From an uncultured Bacteroidales bacterium (GTDB lineage: Bacteria; Bacteroidota; Bacteroidia; Bacteroidales; JAGODS01): DNA of 27,715 bases. The DNA lies in the NCBI GenBank assembly GCA_964564355.1, contig CAZMDE010000004.1, forward strand, positions 1 through 27,715, in the 5' to 3' direction. This document shows, piece after piece, positions 1-12,588 of this stretch. The translations under genes were made by a program, and so were the position numbers. Position 1 is the stretch's first letter, and each line of letters begins with the position of its first letter. The notes under the pieces are model-generated. The model saw only the letters and a program-made list of their open reading frames with translations, was not told where the DNA came from and searched no databases.

Positions 1-220
1 TATGTTGAGGAAAAAGCAAATGCAATAGCATTTTTAATTGTACCACAAAGTTTTTTAATATATTGCGAATAGCATGCAAATCTTCAGTTTTTGTTGGAAA
101 GCAGAATGATTAACATATATGAATTTATTAATATAAAAAGTGTTAAAATTAATTATGATTTGCTTTATTTATTATACACTCTAACCATCAATTAAAAAAA
201 AGTCTAATTTTACACTTTGA

Positions 221-271
221 TAATTTGGCAAATTGGTAATTTAGCAATTTACTGAATACTGATAACTGACA
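221..271 (+). repeat. Composite octamer + heptamer tandem tract upstream of uppS
   Basis: taatttgg-caaattgg-taatttag-caattt (221-250) followed by actgaat-actgata-actgaca (251-271). Confidence 0.6.
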
Positions 272-278
272 ATGTTTT

Positions 279-1052
279 ATGAGTTTTAAGGATAAAATAG
301 ATTTGAACAGATTGCCTCAGCATGTAGCAATAATAATGGATGGCAATGGAAGGTGGGCAAAACAAAGAGGTTTTGAAAGAATTTTGGGGCATGAGCATGC
401 TGTTTTACCAGTAAGGGAGACAACAGAAGCAGCAGCAGAGCTTGGAATAAAGTACCTGACTTTATATGCATTTTCTACAGAAAACTGGAAACGCCCGATT
501 GATGAGGTAAATGCTTTAATGAATTTATTAGTAAAAACTATAAATAAAGAGACTGAAACACTAAATAAAAATAACATACGTTTACTTGCAATTGGAAATT
601 TAAAAAGCCTGCCAGAAGATTCTTATTCAGAATTAATGGAAGCTATAAATGAAACTTCAAAAAATACAAGAATGTCTTTAGTTTTGGCATTAAGCTATGG
701 AGCTCGTTGGGAAATAGTAGATGCCGTAAAACAATTGATACTTGATAATTATACAGAATTGAGAATTGAGAATGGAGAATTGAGAATTAAAAATGAAGAA
801 ATAACAGAGGAGCTGTTTAGTCAATATCTTACAACAAAAGGGATTCCGGATCCGGAGCTAATGATAAGAACAAGCAGTGAATACAGAATAAGCAATTTTT
901 TATTGTGGCAATTAGCATATTCCGAATTATATTTTAGTTCAAAATTATGGCCTGATTTCACAAAAGAGGATTTCTATGAAGCATTATTGAATTATCAAAA
1001 TCGAGAGAGAAGGTTTGGTTTAACAAGTGAACAAATTAGTCCAAAGTCGTAA
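279..1052 (+). CDS. uppS: Isoprenyl transferase (undecaprenyl diphosphate synthase, cis-prenyltransferase)
   Basis: HVAIIMDGNGRWA, YAFSTENWKRP, RTS(S)EYRISNFLLWQ and C-terminal RRFG motifs; lies directly upstream of bamA, as is usual. Confidence 0.96.
   Translation: MSFKDKIDLNRLPQHVAIIMDGNGRWAKQRGFERILGHEHAVLPVRETTEAAAELGIKYLTLYAFSTENWKRPIDEVNALMNLLVKTINKETETLNKNNIRLLAIGNLKSLPEDSYSELMEAINETSKNTRMSLVLALSYGARWEIVDAVKQLILDNYTELRIENGELRIKNEEITEELFSQYLTTKGIPDPELMIRTSSEYRISNFLLWQLAYSELYFSSKLWPDFTKEDFYEALLNYQNRERRFGLTSEQISPKS
733..803 (+). repeat. In-frame heptamer tract inside uppS
   Basis: aattgat-acttgat-aattata (733-753), then agaattg-agaattg-agaatgg-agaattg-agaatta-aaaatga-agaaata (755-803); encodes QLILDNYTELRIENGELRIKNEEI. 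Confidence 0.9.
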
Positions 1053-1064
1053 GTAAACAGTTTT

Positions 1065-3656
1065 ATGAAAATTAAATATAAAAATTTACTAATTCTTTTT
1101 TTGCTTTCCATAGTATACTGTTTCCTGATTATATCGGGATTCACTGTTTTAAAAGCCCAGGTAATATTAGATGCAGAACAAATTAATATTGATTACAGTA
1201 ATCCAAGAACATATGAAATAGGGGGTATTACCATATCCGGAACGCAATACCTGGACAATAATATTCTTATAACCTTATCAGGATTAACGGTTGGAGACAA
1301 AATTGAGGTGCCGGGAGATAAGATAACAAAAGCCATTCAAAACTTATGGAAACAGGGATTGTTTGAGAATATAAAAATATCTGTTTCAAAAATTAACGGT
1401 GGGGTAATTTTTCTTAATATTTATTTAGAAGAAAAACCCCGTTTATCCAAATTCACATTTACAGGTTTAAGAAAGTCAGAAGCTAACAGCTTAAAGGATA
1501 AAACAAAACTTACGAAGGGGGATGTTGTAACTGAAAATCTTATAATGAGAACTTCAAATCTTATTAAAAATCATTTTACGGATAAAGGTTACATGAATAC
1601 TAATGTAAACATTATTCAGAAGCGTGACACATCGGTTACCAATAATGTTATTCTGATTATTAATGTAAATAAAGGGAAAAAAGGAAAGATTGGTAAAATC
1701 ACTTTTATTGGTAATAAAATACTATCAGAAGCAAAGCTTAAGAGGTTAATGAAAAAAACCAAGGAACATAAGTTTTTCAGAATATTTACAGCATCAAAAT
1801 TTATTGAATCAGAATACAAGGCAGATAAGCAAAAAATTATTGAAAAATATAATGAGATTGGTTTCAGGGATGCAAGAATAGTAAATGACTCGGTGTATAA
1901 AGAAAAGTTCGGAGTTCGGAGTTCGGAGTTCGGAGTTAGTAATAAAAATAAGGATGAACAACCGGGGAAATATATAAATATAGATATAAAGGTTGATGAG
2001 GGTAATAAATATTATTTCAGAAATATAACCTGGGTTGGAAACTCAAAATATACATCAGAAGAATTAAGCAGGGTATTGAAGATAAATAAAGGAGAGATTT
2101 ACAATCAGAAGAGATTAGATGCAAATTTATATATGAACTTAGAAGGTCAGGATGTAAGCTCTTTATATCTTGATGATGGCTATTTGTTTTTCAATGTAAC
2201 TCCAGTCGAAAAGCAAGTAGAAAATGATTCAATTGATATAGAATTCAGGATATATGAAGGCAAACAGGCAAGGATAAATAAAGTATATATTTCGGGAAAT
2301 ACAAAGACCAATGACCATGTAATTCTAAGAGAAATCAGAACAAGACCCGGTCAGTTATTTAACAGGTCAGATATCATAAGAAGCCAGAGAGAGCTAGCAC
2401 AACTAAAATATTTTAATGCAGAAAAAATCCAGATAAATCCAAAACCTAATCCACAGAATGGAACGGTAGACATAGAATATGTAGTAGAAGAAACATCATC
2501 AGACCAATTAGAACTATCAGGCGGCTGGGGAGGAGCAGCAACAGGACTTGTAGGAACATTAGGGGTTTCATTCAATAATTTTTCTCTAAGAAAAATTGCT
2601 AGAAGAGATGCCTGGCGACCGCTTCCTTCAGGAGATGGACAAAAATTAAGCCTGAGAGTACAAGCTAACGGGAGGCAATACCAATCATATAATGCATCAT
2701 TTACAGAACCCTGGCTAGGAGGGAAAAAACCTAATTCATTAAGTGTTTCTTTTTATAATTCAATACAAACAAATGGTTTAGCCAAGGGCGAAGCATCCAG
2801 ACAAGCTATAAATATTTACGGAGCATCAGTAGGCTTAGGAAAAAGGATTACCTGGCCTGATGATTTTTTCACACTTTACCAGGAAGTTGGTTATCAGAAT
2901 TACAAACTTGAAAATTACTTATCAACGTTTTTATTTGCTGATGGAACTTCGAATAATATATTTTATAATATTACCCTGGCAAGAAATTCTTTTGATGCGC
3001 CAATTTTTCCGAGAACAGGTTCATCAATTTCATTATCTTTAAAAGTCACACCTCCTTTTTCGTTGTTTACAGATAAAGACTATTCAGCATTATCTGCACA
3101 AGATAAATATAAATTGATAGAATATCATAAATGGAATTTTAATACTTCGTGGTTTACAAAATTAGCCGGCAATTTAGTGTTAAACACAAGGTTAAGATAT
3201 GGCTTTATGGGAGACTTTAATAGAGGAATCGGGATTTCACCATTTGAGAGATATTATGTAGGAGGTAGCGGGTTGTCCGGATTTTCACTAGATGGCAGAG
3301 AAATAATAGCAATGAGAGGTTATGCAGATTATTCATTAACACCCAGAAACAATTCCGGATATATAGGCGGTTCGATATTTAACAAATATACTATTGAATT
3401 AAGATACCCATTATCATTAAACCCGATGGCAACTATTTATTTATTAGGATTTGCAGAAGCAGGAAATGCGTGGACAAAATTTAAGGAATTTAATGCTTTT
3501 GATGTAAAAAGGTCAGCAGGTTTTGGAATCAGGGTTTTTTTACCAATGTTTGGATTACTCGGGCTTGATTGGGGTTATGGGTTTGATGAAATTCCCGGAA
3601 ATCCCGGAAATAACAAGGGACAGTTCCATTTTTCAATCGGGCAATCAATAGAATAA
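1065..3656 (+). CDS. bamA: Outer membrane protein assembly factor BamA
   Basis: Signal peptide, five POTRA-like segments, barrel start SSDQLELSGGWGG, MRGY loop motif, C-terminal FHFSIGQSI; uppS-bamA-skp order. Confidence 0.96.
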   Translation: MKIKYKNLLILFLLSIVYCFLIISGFTVLKAQVILDAEQINIDYSNPRTYEIGGITISGTQYLDNNILITLSGLTVGDKIEVPGDKITKAIQNLWKQGLFENIKISVSKINGGVIFLNIYLEEKPRLSKFTFTGLRKSEANSLKDKTKLTKGDVVTENLIMRTSNLIKNHFTDKGYMNTNVNIIQKRDTSVTNNVILIINVNKGKKGKIGKITFIGNKILSEAKLKRLMKKTKEHKFFRIFTASKFIESEYKADKQKIIEKYNEIGFRDARIVNDSVYKEKFGVRSSEFGVSNKNKDEQPGKYINIDIKVDEGNKYYFRNITWVGNSKYTSEELSRVLKINKGEIYNQKRLDANLYMNLEGQDVSSLYLDDGYLFFNVTPVEKQVENDSIDIEFRIYEGKQARINKVYISGNTKTNDHVILREIRTRPGQLFNRSDIIRSQRELAQLKYFNAEKIQINPKPNPQNGTVDIEYVVEETSSDQLELSGGWGGAATGLVGTLGVSFNNFSLRKIARRDAWRPLPSGDGQKLSLRVQANGRQYQSYNASFTEPWLGGKKPNSLSVSFYNSIQTNGLAKGEASRQAINIYGASVGLGKRITWPDDFFTLYQEVGYQNYKLENYLSTFLFADGTSNNIFYNITLARNSFDAPIFPRTGSSISLSLKVTPPFSLFTDKDYSALSAQDKYKLIEYHKWNFNTSWFTKLAGNLVLNTRLRYGFMGDFNRGIGISPFERYYVGGSGLSGFSLDGREIIAMRGYADYSLTPRNNSGYIGGSIFNKYTIELRYPLSLNPMATIYLLGFAEAGNAWTKFKEFNAFDVKRSAGFGIRVFLPMFGLLGLDWGYGFDEIPGNPGNNKGQFHFSIGQSIE
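1906..1937 (+). repeat. In-frame (AGTTCGG)4.5 tract inside bamA
   Basis: Four perfect AGTTCGG copies plus AGTT; encodes KFGVRSSEFGV. Confidence 0.95.
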
Positions 3657-3688
3657 TTAGGAATTAGGAATTAATAATTAGTAATTAG
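3654..3688 (+). repeat. Heptamer tract (KAATTAG)5 starting at the bamA stop codon
   Basis: taattag-gaattag-gaattaa-taattag-taattag; resumes as taattag-gaat at 3861. Confidence 0.85.
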
Positions 3689-3860
3689 TGCCTGTCCATA
3701 AAGTCATAAATAAAAAAAGTAACACAGAGATACACAGAGAAGACACAGAGTTTATTCACAATATTAATCTAATATTAAAGAGTTCATGAGATAAATGTTC
3801 ACAGAGAAGAAAAAATAAATGTTTCACATTTGGAAAATGTGAAACATTATGGACAGATAC
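3688..3860. mobile_element. 173-bp MITE-like / IS-remnant element
   Basis: Terminal inverted repeats gtgcctgtccataa (3688-3701) and ttatggacagatac (3847-3860) match at 12/14; taatta direct repeat on both sides (3682-3687, 3861-3866); no ORF; internal ACACAGAG x3 and a 14-bp hairpin at 3818-3848. Confidence 0.65.
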
Positions 3861-3902
3861 TAATTAGGAATAAATTTTAAATAACATTTAACTTATCAGA
3901 TT

Positions 3903-4454
3903 ATGAAAAAAGGAGTTTTTAGTTTAATATTTGTTTTAATGTTAAGCGGTTTTGCCAATGCACAGAAGTTTGCATTTGTAGATACAAAGTATATTCTTGA
4001 TAACATTCCGGAATATAAAGCTGCCCAGGAACAGCTTGATGAGTTATCCCTGCAATGGCAAAAAGAAATTGAAGTAAAGTTTGCAGAGATAGATAAAATG
4101 TATAAAGATTATCAGGCAGAAGCTGTGCTTCTACCTGAAGATATGAAAAAGAAAAAAGAAAACCAAATAGTAAGCAAGGAAAAAGAAGCCAAGGACTTAC
4201 AAAAGAAAAGGTTTGGCAATGACGGCGATTTGTTTAAAAAACGAGAAGCTTTAGTAAAACCAATTCAGGATAAAGTATATAATGCAATAGAAACAATTGC
4301 TACAACAGGAAATTATGGTATTGTCTTTGATCAGGCAGGAAGTCTAACCATTTTATATGGAGATTCGAAGCTTGATAAAAGTGATGATGTTTTAGAAAAA
4401 TTAGGAGTTACTCCAGGTAAAGAAAAGAAAGAAAAAGGAAAGTCCAAAAAATAG
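3903..4454 (+). CDS. skp: OmpH/Skp family periplasmic chaperone
   Basis: Signal peptide ending ANA-QK, FAFVDTKYIL start, coiled-coil core, YGIVFD segment; follows bamA. Confidence 0.92.
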   Translation: MKKGVFSLIFVLMLSGFANAQKFAFVDTKYILDNIPEYKAAQEQLDELSLQWQKEIEVKFAEIDKMYKDYQAEAVLLPEDMKKKKENQIVSKEKEAKDLQKKRFGNDGDLFKKREALVKPIQDKVYNAIETIATTGNYGIVFDQAGSLTILYGDSKLDKSDDVLEKLGVTPGKEKKEKGKSKK

Positions 4455-4524
4455 ATTTGTCAGATTTATCAGATTGTCAGATTTATCAGATTTTATATCT
4501 GTTAATCTTATAATCTTCTAATCC
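4453..4524. repeat. Degenerate palindromic element: (AGATT..)n followed by (..AATCT)n, period 8-9 nt
   Basis: agatttgtc-agatttatc-agattgtc-agatttatc-agattt, core hairpin cagat-tttat-atctg (4487-4501), then taatctta-taatcttc-taatcc. Confidence 0.8.
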
Positions 4525-7325: not shown

Positions 7326-9026
7326 TTAAATCAAATTAGCAAATTCAAATTTAGTAACATCAAACAAACCTTTATCACCTAATTTAAGTTCAGGAATAAC
7401 AAGCAAAGCCATGAAAGATAGAGTCATGAATGGAGAGGTTAATTTTGTACCCAGATTTATAACAGTTTTATTTATTGATTGATATATATCAGCAACCTGA
7501 TAAATATTGGCATTAGACATAAGACCAGCTACAGGCAAGGGGAGGATTTTGGAATTTGAATTATAAATGCTTAATTCTGAATAAGAAATACCGCCTTTGT
7601 TATCAATAATCATATTAATTGCATTAACTATATCCTCATCATCTGCACCAACAGCAATGATATTATGACTATCATGAGCGATACTAGAGGCTATGGCTCC
7701 ATATTTAAAGCCAAATCCTTTAATAAAACCAACTGCAGGTTTTGAATGCTGAATATCATATCTGTTGTATACAACAATTTTCAGAGTATCATTTTCAATA
7801 TCACTTACAATATTATTATCAAAGATTTTTGCCTTTTCGATAAGAGATTTGGTAAAAAGTTGTCCGTCTATAGCTTCAATCACCCTGATAGATGCCGGAA
7901 GCTTGAGGACGGAAGCTGGAAGTTCAATGTCTTTTAAGGTAATTTTATTGCAATGAAAGTTATTTAATGGTTCTTCTTTTAAAGAATTAATCAATGTATT
8001 TCCTTTATCAGCAACTTTTTCACCATTTATGTAAGTTGATAAAACGTTAAAGTTATTCAGATTGTCAACAATAATAAAGTCGGCAGGATCTCCTTCTTGT
8101 AATAATCCGACGTTGAGATTGTAATGTTTAACAGGGTTATAGGTACAGCTTCTGATAATATCCATTGTATTATAACCACTTTTTATTGCTTTTTTAATCA
8201 GCAAATTAATATGACCTTGTATTAAATCATCAGGATGCCTGTCGTCAGAACAGAACATTAGGCTATCAGGATATTTAGCAATTAAAGGAATAAGCTCGTC
8301 AAAATCTTTAGCTGCACTGCCCTCTCTTATAAGAATTTTCATTCCGAACTTGATTTTATCCTCTGCCTCACTTATTGTCATACATTCATGGTCAGTGCTT
8401 ATACCTGCCTTTGCATAAGCTTGAGCATCATTTCCTTTTAAACCAGGTGCGTGTCCGTCAACAGGTTTTTTATATTTTTTTGCTAATTCAATCTTGCCAA
8501 TTACTTCCCTATCATTATTCAAAACACCAGGGAAGTTCATCATTTCTGACAAATATTTAATCTCCTTAATGCTTAATAATTCCTCAGTTTCTTTCAATCC
8601 AAAATTAGCTCCAGATGTTTCAAAAGCTGTAGCCGGGACACAGGAAGGAGCACCGAAATAAAATTTAAAATTAACCTTCTTTCCATTATTAATCATAAAT
8701 TTTACACCTTCAATACCAAGAACATTTGCAATTTCGTGCGGGTCGGACACAGTTGCAACTGTTCCATGAACCACAGCAGCCCTGGCAAATTCTGAGGGAA
8801 TAACCATAGAACTTTCAATATGAATATGAGCATCAATTAGTCCAGGCAGGATAAAAGATTTGGTGATTTGGTGATTTGGTGATTTGATAATTTGATTATC
8901 TGACTGTGGACAGTGGACTATTTTAACAATCTTTCCATTTTCAATATTTATAGTTCCATAAAAGATTTCTTTATTGACAACATCAACAATATTTCCGCTT
9001 ACAGAAAACGTTTTAACTTTATTCAT
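7326..9026 (-). CDS. ade: Adenine deaminase
   Basis: PGLIDAHIHIESS, DPHEIANV, EMMNFPGV, DGHAPG, TDHEC, REGSAAKD, SDDRHP, AHDSHN, FMTLSFMALLVIPELK. Confidence 0.95.
   Translation of the reverse strand: MNKVKTFSVSGNIVDVVNKEIFYGTINIENGKIVKIVHCPQSDNQIIKSPNHQITKSFILPGLIDAHIHIESSMVIPSEFARAAVVHGTVATVSDPHEIANVLGIEGVKFMINNGKKVNFKFYFGAPSCVPATAFETSGANFGLKETEELLSIKEIKYLSEMMNFPGVLNNDREVIGKIELAKKYKKPVDGHAPGLKGNDAQAYAKAGISTDHECMTISEAEDKIKFGMKILIREGSAAKDFDELIPLIAKYPDSLMFCSDDRHPDDLIQGHINLLIKKAIKSGYNTMDIIRSCTYNPVKHYNLNVGLLQEGDPADFIIVDNLNNFNVLSTYINGEKVADKGNTLINSLKEEPLNNFHCNKITLKDIELPASVLKLPASIRVIEAIDGQLFTKSLIEKAKIFDNNIVSDIENDTLKIVVYNRYDIQHSKPAVGFIKGFGFKYGAIASSIAHDSHNIIAVGADDEDIVNAINMIIDNKGGISYSELSIYNSNSKILPLPVAGLMSNANIYQVADIYQSINKTVINLGTKLTSPFMTLSFMALLVIPELKLGDKGLFDVTKFEFANLI
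7551..7585 (+). repeat. Degenerate heptamer tract inside ade
   Basis: ggaattt-gaattat-aaatgct-taattct-gaataag; encodes YSELSIYNSNS on the minus strand. Confidence 0.45.
7890..7924 (+). repeat. Heptamer (GGAAGCT-like) tract inside ade
   Basis: agatgcc-ggaagct-tgaggac-ggaagct-ggaagtt; encodes ELPASVLKLPAS. Confidence 0.7.
8857..8918 (+). repeat. Octamer + heptamer tract inside the ade N-terminal region
   Basis: (gatttggt)3-gatttgat-aatttgat (8857-8896), then tgtggac-agtggac (8905-8918); encodes VHCPQSDNQIIKSPNHQITKS. Confidence 0.92.
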
Positions 9027-11880: not shown

Positions 11881-12537
11881 ATGAAATCATATAAGATTTT
11901 GCTTATAATATTTTTTTCTTTTTTGATTACTATTGGTTGTCAAAGGAAAAATCCTTCAGAGCCTCAACCCGGGAAGCATACAGATACTGCAAAAACTCAA
12001 CAAGCCTTAAATACTAAAAATATAAAAGATGAATCAAAATATGGCATAAAATCAGGAATCATCACTTTTGAGACAGATATTGCCGGTACTAAAGGTATGA
12101 AAAAGCTTTATTTTGATGATTATGGCAAACTTGAGAGAGAGGTTTTTTATGATGAGGAAATTCCAAGAGAGGGTTATGTAACAGCAGGGGGCTTTTTGTA
12201 TAGAATTTTATATAAACAAAAAACAGCTTACCGCTTAGGACCAGCAAAAAGTGGAAGTGCATACAGATTCAGCTGGAATTCTGTACCCGACATAGAAAAA
12301 AAAGAAGGACATGCCATTAAAACAGAGAATGTAAAAATAGCCGGGAAAATCTGTGAATCATATAAATTGGATAATTCCGGAATCATCACAAAATTTGCCG
12401 GTTGGCAGGGTATTTGCCTATATGCTATGCAAATGAGCAAGGTAGGCAATGCAGAAGCAAAGGCAGTAAAGATTAAGGAAAATGTTCCCATACCTGAAGA
12501 AATGTTTGAAATACCCAGAGGGTTTAAGGTTAAGTAG
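11881..12537 (+). CDS. Hypothetical lipoprotein (possibly DUF4412-like)
   Basis: Lipobox ITIG-C20; KIAGKICESY...WQGICL segment recalls DUF4412-type proteins. Confidence 0.7.
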   Translation: MKSYKILLIIFFSFLITIGCQRKNPSEPQPGKHTDTAKTQQALNTKNIKDESKYGIKSGIITFETDIAGTKGMKKLYFDDYGKLEREVFYDEEIPREGYVTAGGFLYRILYKQKTAYRLGPAKSGSAYRFSWNSVPDIEKKEGHAIKTENVKIAGKICESYKLDNSGIITKFAGWQGICLYAMQMSKVGNAEAKAVKIKENVPIPEEMFEIPRGFKVK

Positions 12538-12539
12538 GG

Positions 12540-12588
12540 AGTTCGGAGTTCAGAGTATAATAAAGCTTTCAGCAATCAGCATTCAAAT
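12540..12588 (+). repeat. Two short intergenic heptamer tracts
   Basis: agttcgg-agttcag (12540-12553; same unit as in bamA) and ttcagca-atcagca-ttcaaat (12568-12588). Confidence 0.55.

Follow-up and report, generated by a model that had tools for sequence, protein, structure and literature searches.

The stretch of DNA analysed here (27,715 nt, positions 1 to 27,715 of contig CAZMDE010000004.1 in assembly GCA_964564355.1; hereafter the window) derives from an uncultured Bacteroidales bacterium and carries, at 1065–3656 on the forward strand, a bamA gene whose coding sequence contains a perfect tandem array of the heptanucleotide AGTTCGG. The open reading frame (ORF) encodes 863 amino acids (P0001) and is a complete bamA as judged by its POTRA domains, its barrel and its neighbourhood. 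The Pfam POTRA profile PF07244 matches it in five stretches (E 9e-48), and five beta-alpha-alpha-beta-beta units are present in the structural model described below; the Omp85 profile PF01103 covers residues 478–863 (E 1.6e-32), where the strands of the model span 480–858. The solved Bacteroidota BamA chains 9hj3_A, 9n2d_A and 9hiv_A in the PDB are similar over the full length (E ~1e-214). Moreover, the gene lies in the order uppS-bamA-ompH, with a Prenyltransf gene upstream and OmpH (skp/ompH) downstream, an order that is kept on the contigs of relatives. Only one bamA match was found in the metagenome-assembled genome G000 (3.24 Mb in 612 contigs, 33.5% GC, 91% complete), so that the gene is single-copy. 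The sequencing runs that hold this sequence are freshwater metagenomes, and the closest named BamA proteins are labelled as belonging to Bacteroidales or Bacteroidota metagenome-assembled genomes.

The array occupies window positions 1906–1937 and consists of 4.57 perfect copies of AGTTCGG in 32 nt, as reported by Tandem Repeats Finder (TRF; period 7, 4.6 copies, 100% matches, score 64) and confirmed in the raw letters. It is translated in frame as (K)FGVRSSEFGV within a protein that contains the string DSVYKEKFGVRSSEFGVSNKNKDEQPGKYINIDIKVDEG. Chance is excluded as the origin of the tract, because the expectation for 25 bases copying the preceding unit is about 1e-11 per 27.7-kb window. Comparison with orthologues indicates a lineage-specific insertion of 19 residues, or 57 nt, at about F282–P300 (1908–1964, a position uncertain by a few residues); 32 of these 57 bases belong to the tract and 25 are non-repetitive. 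The non-repetitive 3' part (1938–1964) encodes SNKNKDEQP and has no period-7 signal, and searching it with blastn-short against the genome returned no second copy, only chance A+T-rich matches of at most 15 nt.

The insertion falls into POTRA3 (about residues 206–312, window 1680–2000), the boundaries of which were taken from the secondary structure of an AlphaFold2 model (m2232f5b5f012) built from an 82-sequence alignment, with a mean predicted local distance difference test score (pLDDT) of 81.4. In this model, POTRA3 comprises b1 (208–215), a1 (222–228), a2 (248–264), b2 (271–279), a loop (280–302) and b3 (303–311), and residues 283–298 between b2 and b3 have pLDDT values below 50 and no secondary structure. 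The solved chain 9hj3_A shows a 19-residue gap facing the insert. The segment from the invariant A270 to E312 measures 41 residues here, whereas 117 orthologues out of the 120 best database matches have 22; it measures 21–24 residues in 89 further orthologues of 42–69% identity, which brings the combined figure to 206 of 209 orthologues with 21–24 residues, 199 of them with exactly 22. We thus describe the insert as a predicted disordered surface loop at the b2-b3 hairpin of POTRA3. In the BAM (beta-barrel assembly machinery) structure of Flavobacterium johnsoniae, POTRA1-3 are membrane-distal, flexible and poorly resolved, and the partner proteins sit on POTRA4/5 and POTRA1, with none named for POTRA3 (PMC12611786); by analogy, this layout is consistent with a POTRA3 hairpin that tolerates extra residues.

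A preliminary description of this locus, made from the letters alone, had recognised bamA and a perfect in-frame heptamer tract in POTRA3, had taken the site to be ordinarily a short turn between two strands, and had estimated 15–20 additional residues. The analyses above bear this out: the translated string that it gave matches exactly, predicted structure, Pfam and the orthologue alignment agree on gene and position, the structure prediction that it proposed puts a disordered insert between b2 and b3, and the insert amounts to exactly 19 residues. Its expectation that a single-unit change would shift the frame of bamA, and that only steps of three units would be viable, was likewise upheld in-silico. 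Gain or loss of one or two units leads to a stop at residues 287–309, that is, within 5–25 codons and still inside POTRA3 before the barrel, while a change of three units in either direction preserves the frame. Deletion of three units, the largest in-frame block, leaves an insert of 12 residues.

The bamA tract is one of many such arrays in this genome. A census of perfect arrays with at least three copies of the unit yielded 188 arrays of period 7, compared with 51 of period 8, eight of period 6, nine of period 5 and three of period 9. With TRF at a low threshold, 900 period-7 arrays were retrieved (136 and 16 at neighbouring periods), of which 280 were perfect and 129 were below 80% identity, and this range from perfect to decayed arrays suggests continuing birth and decay. 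Of the 78 distinct canonical heptamer units, AGTTCGG/CCGAACT is the commonest (12 arrays), and related AACTxCx units come next. Every one of the 12 AGTTCGG arrays is in frame within an ORF, of 187–941 amino acids; three are read as SSEFGVR and nine, from the opposite strand, as LRTPNSE. The unit is translatable in both orientations because it is free of stop codons in every frame on either strand. When the 19 arrays of the two most frequent related units were compared, neither a shared flanking motif nor a target duplication was found.

Placement relative to genes follows the stop codons of the unit. Taking ORFs of at least 150 amino acids as genes, units that are stop-free on both strands lie within them in 47 of 57 cases (82%), practically the 83% obtained for random positions, compared with 46 of 94 for units stop-free on one strand and none of 37 where both strands contain stops. 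Translation extends to about half of the perfect arrays, in some 90 ordinary ORFs. It looks as if arrays arrive irrespective of gene positions, with frame and stop codons acting afterwards as the only filter. A second in-frame case in the window is uppS (279–1052, forward strand), an essential gene that adjoins bamA and is identified by Pfam Prenyltransf (E 3e-84). Here a tract of the AGAATTG family spans 755–800 and is scored by TRF as period 7 with 4.9 copies or period 21 with 2.2 copies. Compared with the UppS of the relative L001 (77% identity), six extra residues are present in this region, a net gain of 18 nt that is not a multiple of 21.

An abundance of heptamers seems to characterise this family-level lineage. 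Six perfect heptamer arrays were counted in the 138 kb sampled from G001, the one further species of the family in the genome collection, whereas two genomes of other families in the order have one in 69 kb (G010) and none in 141 kb (G024), and the bamA loci of other Bacteroidota (L004–L106) contain about five in approximately 1.17 Mb. On the contig of G001, three heptamer arrays stand side by side (L107:2343–2468, contig C1: CCGCTAC ×3, TACTCAT ×7.9 and CGCTACC ×3.9). The unit itself is by no means confined to this lineage. In the species-representative genome collection, more than 116 stretches contain exact (AGTTCGG)×4, with hosts among the cyanobacteria, Verrucomicrobiota, Omnitrophota, Acidobacteriota, Nitrospirota, Bacteroidales and others. 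In 80 such loci that were fetched, 64 of 95 arrays are enclosed by an ORF of at least 150 amino acids, and the modal array length is 31–33 nt. In 400 evenly sampled Bacteroidota genomes, (AGTTCGG)×3 was not found, compared with two genomes for the dinucleotide-matched control (AGGTTCG)×3. The idea of AGTTCGG as a special, horizontally spread unit was discarded on these counts (0/400 versus 2/400), as they give no enrichment in Bacteroidota. The reversed control (GGCTTGA)×3 matched 14, 4 and 4 times in G053, G080 and G259, three genomes of a single genus (g112), and nowhere else among the 400, so that g112 looks like another heptamer-rich Bacteroidota lineage with a unit of its own. Heptamer-rich lineages are thus sporadic, each with its own favoured units.

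Public sequencing data were consulted for the tract. Six public runs carry parts of the region, and the Logan contigs of four of them were placed on window 200–4000. Depth is 3–6× on the bamA flanks versus about 110–120 over 1851–1977, where many different loose ends accumulate; contigs end at 1869 and resume at 1962, and none joins the tract to the bamA flanks. The peak arises because many other loci carry an AGTTCGG tract, and the tract is common to many loci and organisms in the source samples. One could suppose that the tract, or its copy number, is a product of the assembler, which might have linked reads across a repeat present at many loci; the depth profile and the absence of a bridging public contig speak for such an artefact. 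Nevertheless, both flanks are collinear bamA with the frame kept across the tract, 32 nt should be shorter than typical short reads, and the 12 AGTTCGG arrays are all in frame in ORFs, unlike random misjoins. We consider an artefact very improbable.

The history of the loop was approached through the closest BamA proteins. The segment has its canonical 22 residues in P0005 (78% identity) and P0004 (76%); in two other relatives, P0003 (73%) and P0006 (72%), precisely this turn is extended into a long loop (+20 and +19 residues). The loops of P0003 and P0006 resemble each other, neither with an exact 7-residue repeat in the protein, and share with the loop of P0001 only their two C-terminal residues (2 of 24 positions, by eye, alignment A2). 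A metagenome scan for the contigs that encode P0003 and P0006 did not yield them, its best hit being 64% identical. A tree built without the insert columns has P0007 outside and groups the proteins as ((P0001,P0005) 91/77, (P0004,(P0003,P0006)) 93/91). No AGTTCGG-like seed was present at the homologous site of L001, the closest relative with DNA, whose insert-free BamA is 78% identical, and the protein cluster of this BamA holds no second strain. Further variable loops exist in BamA of this order: P0005 has a 6-residue insert in POTRA2 and P0006 a 9-residue insert after POTRA3 beta1 (alignment A2 columns 232–240), and BamA of G022, G025, G004, G012, G003 and G035 (e.g. L012, L019, L021 and L024) aligns as two separate pieces, about 70–85 nt between them being unmatched near query residues 232–250, at the start of POTRA3.

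Three further claims of the preliminary description were weighed. It had held that close repeat-free orthologues with an equally long loop would speak against its reading, and the orthologues are divided, P0004 and P0005 having the short turn it assumed and P0003 and P0006 a loop as long as the one seen here, so that its condition applies in part. It had also read the perfect tract as a recent event. This part found only partial support: recency of the insertion in one step is not demonstrated, since the tract accounts for 32 of 57 bases, and the insert is not simply three recent units, because 12 residues remain after three units are removed. Lastly, the event in an essential assembly factor is real, but not peculiar to BamA, given some 190 perfect heptamer arrays across the genome.

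The tract is probably a tolerated passenger loop, an ordinary member of the genome-wide heptamer population and not specific to BamA. An older origin of the loop is the first alternative to be weighed. A loop of about 19 residues may have existed in a common ancestor with P0003 and P0006, the array later overwriting part of it, and P0004 and P0005 would then have lost the loop or lie outside the clade. The extra lengths at this turn are near-identical (+19 here and in P0006, +20 in P0003), an insert of 12 residues stays behind when three units are removed, and monophyly of the three insert-bearing proteins is not clearly rejected (approximately unbiased test, AU, p = 0.052). However, the best tree pairs P0001 with the insert-free P0005 and the P0003/P0006 pair with the insert-free P0004, and forcing P0001, P0003 and P0006 together costs 21.4 log-likelihood units. 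The canonical 22 residues in both P0004 and P0005 would require two precise losses, and the loops have just the two terminal residues in common despite 72–73% identity of the proteins. We regard this history as rather unlikely, and two independent gains at one permissive turn are favoured by the tree, only marginally.

Selection for the loop is another possibility, in which a longer POTRA3 hairpin was fixed as a useful surface, for example for docking a lineage-specific BAM partner or substrate, with the repeat as raw material. Long insertions at exactly the same turn in two sub-lineages, in a hairpin whose length is otherwise extremely conserved, give this some appeal. Nevertheless, AGTTCGG is translated in 11 unrelated genes besides and in either orientation, the placement of arrays equals random expectation, the two sub-lineages have loops of unrelated sequence, the loop is modelled at pLDDT below 50 without secondary structure, and the F. 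johnsoniae BAM paper names no partner on POTRA3 (PMC12611786). Taken together, a selected function appears quite improbable. Even less can be said for a contingency locus, that is, a slippage switch that would turn bamA on and off or yield a truncated product in part of the population. The unit is not a multiple of three, the tract is perfect and changes of one or two units give early stops, as such a switch would need, but bamA is essential and single-copy, the off state would end in POTRA3 without a barrel, and tracts of this kind sit in about 90 ordinary ORFs including uppS, unlike the surface or restriction genes that are typical of such loci. We hold this explanation to be extremely improbable.

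The reading of the tract as a passenger has to be set against several points that weigh against it. Since the insert of 57 bases includes 25 that lie outside the repeat, the tract alone fails to explain it. The recurrence of an insertion at exactly this turn in P0003 and P0006 could mean selection for a longer loop, and a function may be compatible with the disordered prediction, neutrality of the loop being something that we infer. The exact copy number is derived from an assembly at roughly 3–6× depth.

With these points in mind, we propose the following course of events for a passenger tract. The lineage would accumulate short heptanucleotide arrays (about 21–34 nt) throughout its genome, and these would persist wherever they neither shift a frame nor introduce a stop codon. 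In bamA, an array may have landed in, or grown within, the tight b2-b3 hairpin turn of POTRA3, where the 19 added residues would form a disordered surface loop that BamA tolerates. From then on, the tract could change by 21-nt steps (three units) only, because bamA is essential and single-copy; all other slippage products would die, which is why it looks frozen and perfect. We surmise that the array was seeded in one multi-unit step, for instance by template switching or conversion from another array, or that it grew inside an older small insert. Such an origin is probable because single-unit slips would be lethal, 57 nt is not a multiple of 21 and no seed exists in L001; a three-unit slip cannot start an array, since it needs an existing one.

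A more far-reaching variant is that a process other than local slippage writes a whole array of about 30 nt in one step, be it repair synthesis or template switching that copies from an ectopic array, or a dedicated enzyme. It would fit, because the net gains of 57 nt in bamA and 18 nt in uppS are not multiples of 21, the same few units recur at dozens of loci and the lengths cluster at 21–34 nt; we offer it as a speculative and on the whole doubtful suggestion. If it were true, tracts in essential genes would be natural reporters of the process. Three other candidates were considered and set aside. Loss of mismatch repair seemed conceivable as MutL (PF01119) had no match in G000 and G001 and was present in four of four other relatives. 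The absence in G000 is an assembly cut, however, because tblastn placed the C-terminal half of MutL (residues ~341–617) at C265:3529–4371, running into the end of that contig, and MutS is present. A hairpin or other structured element was dismissed after folding of both DNA strands of the bamA tract, which was no better than for shuffled sequences (z −0.55 and +1.1) and revealed no hairpin pairing of arrays at this site. A composite mobile element was discarded as well, the 3' part of the insert being unique in the genome and the arrays having no common flanks.

Tandem heptamers are an established class of prokaryotic repeat. According to the summaries in PMC4679880 and PMC4692102, Mrazek, Guo and Shah (2007) described how heptanucleotides lead among the long simple-sequence repeats (LSSR5-11) of some prokaryotes, mainly in large high-GC genomes (Burkholderia, Xanthomonas, cyanobacteria and actinobacteria). 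As far as the account in PMC4692102 goes, they are over-represented between genes and under-represented in coding DNA, with the coding depletion given for Xanthomonas and Nostoc. Xanthomonas and Nostoc have GGGNATC heptamers, while repeats of TAACTGA are found in Beggiatoaceae and cyanobacteria as well as in a few Bacteroidetes (PMC4679880, PMC4692102). The bamA tract is a heptanucleotide LSSR in that it shows a tandem excess over chance and a period-7 excess over adjacent periods. Like the members of LSSR5-11, the arrays of this genome comprise many units, a genome-wide excess of period 7, about four units per array and a sporadic, lineage-specific spread, and such arrays are generally seen as the outcome of a broad propensity for expansion, not as functional elements. 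What differs is the host, a Bacteroidales genome of 3.2 Mb and 33.5% GC, and the fact that about half of the perfect arrays are translated, stop-free units being found in genes at the random rate. It therefore seems that a known class is at hand, and that the low-GC Bacteroidales host lineage, which seems to include the family relative G001, is what is new.

Among other repeats, the short tandemly repeated repetitive (STRR) sequences of heterocystous cyanobacteria comprise STRR1 (CCCCAGT), STRR2 (TTGGTCA) and STRR3 (CAACAGT) and are mostly intergenic. The arrays described here work alike without being STRR sequences, as the units differ, the host belongs to the Bacteroidales and half of the arrays are intragenic. 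Tandem heptamers with a few favoured units per genome and the same unit in distant phyla are common to STRR, to the TAACTGA repeats and to our case (PMC4679880). The TAACTGA unit contains forward stop codons and lies mostly just upstream of starts, whereas AGTTCGG is stop-free on both strands and intragenic here. Rickettsia palindromic elements are selfish repeats of 100–150 nt, palindromic and with a consensus, that insert in frame in essential genes. The present case resembles them in that repeat DNA is translated as an extra surface loop without loss of function. It differs from them and from miniature inverted-repeat transposable elements (MITE) in being a simple tandem array with no palindrome, consensus flank or target duplication, and we do not assign it to either. 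Phase-variable contingency loci of Haemophilus and Neisseria (PMC2651432) likewise hold, inside an ORF, a perfect repeat whose unit length is not divisible by three. The target here is an essential single-copy gene, and the tracts, about four units long, are spread over some 90 unrelated ORFs, so the bamA tract does not belong with these loci.

Some further repeats in the window and genome may be mentioned. At 12538–12556 on the forward strand, a short GGAGTTC array (×2.7, identified by TRF), which is of the unit family found in bamA, starts right after the TAG stop of the ORF at 11881–12537, between convergent genes. The 51 perfect octamer arrays of G000 consist mainly of AATCTGAT and AAATTACC (17 each; e.g. 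window 8857–8894 and 4453–4493), and the genome also has 104 perfect tetramer arrays. The spacer between bamA and ompH (3629–3882) contains a TAATTAG array plus a ACACAGAG repeat; Logan contigs across it show depth spikes, several alternative joints and skips of 57–103 nt, which point to a variable or multi-copy sequence in the source samples.

For the biology of BamA, about 19 unstructured residues appear to be accommodated at the b2-b3 turn of POTRA3, in probably two independent sub-lineages, which makes this turn a candidate permissive site in Bacteroidota BamA, for example for tags. For the repeats, the share of stop-free arrays inside genes matches that of random positions, so that frame and stops seem to be the main filter on short in-frame insertions in this lineage, in contrast to the coding-region depletion given for Xanthomonas and Nostoc. 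The case also sharpens the question of how arrays are seeded in genes in which single-unit intermediates would be lethal.

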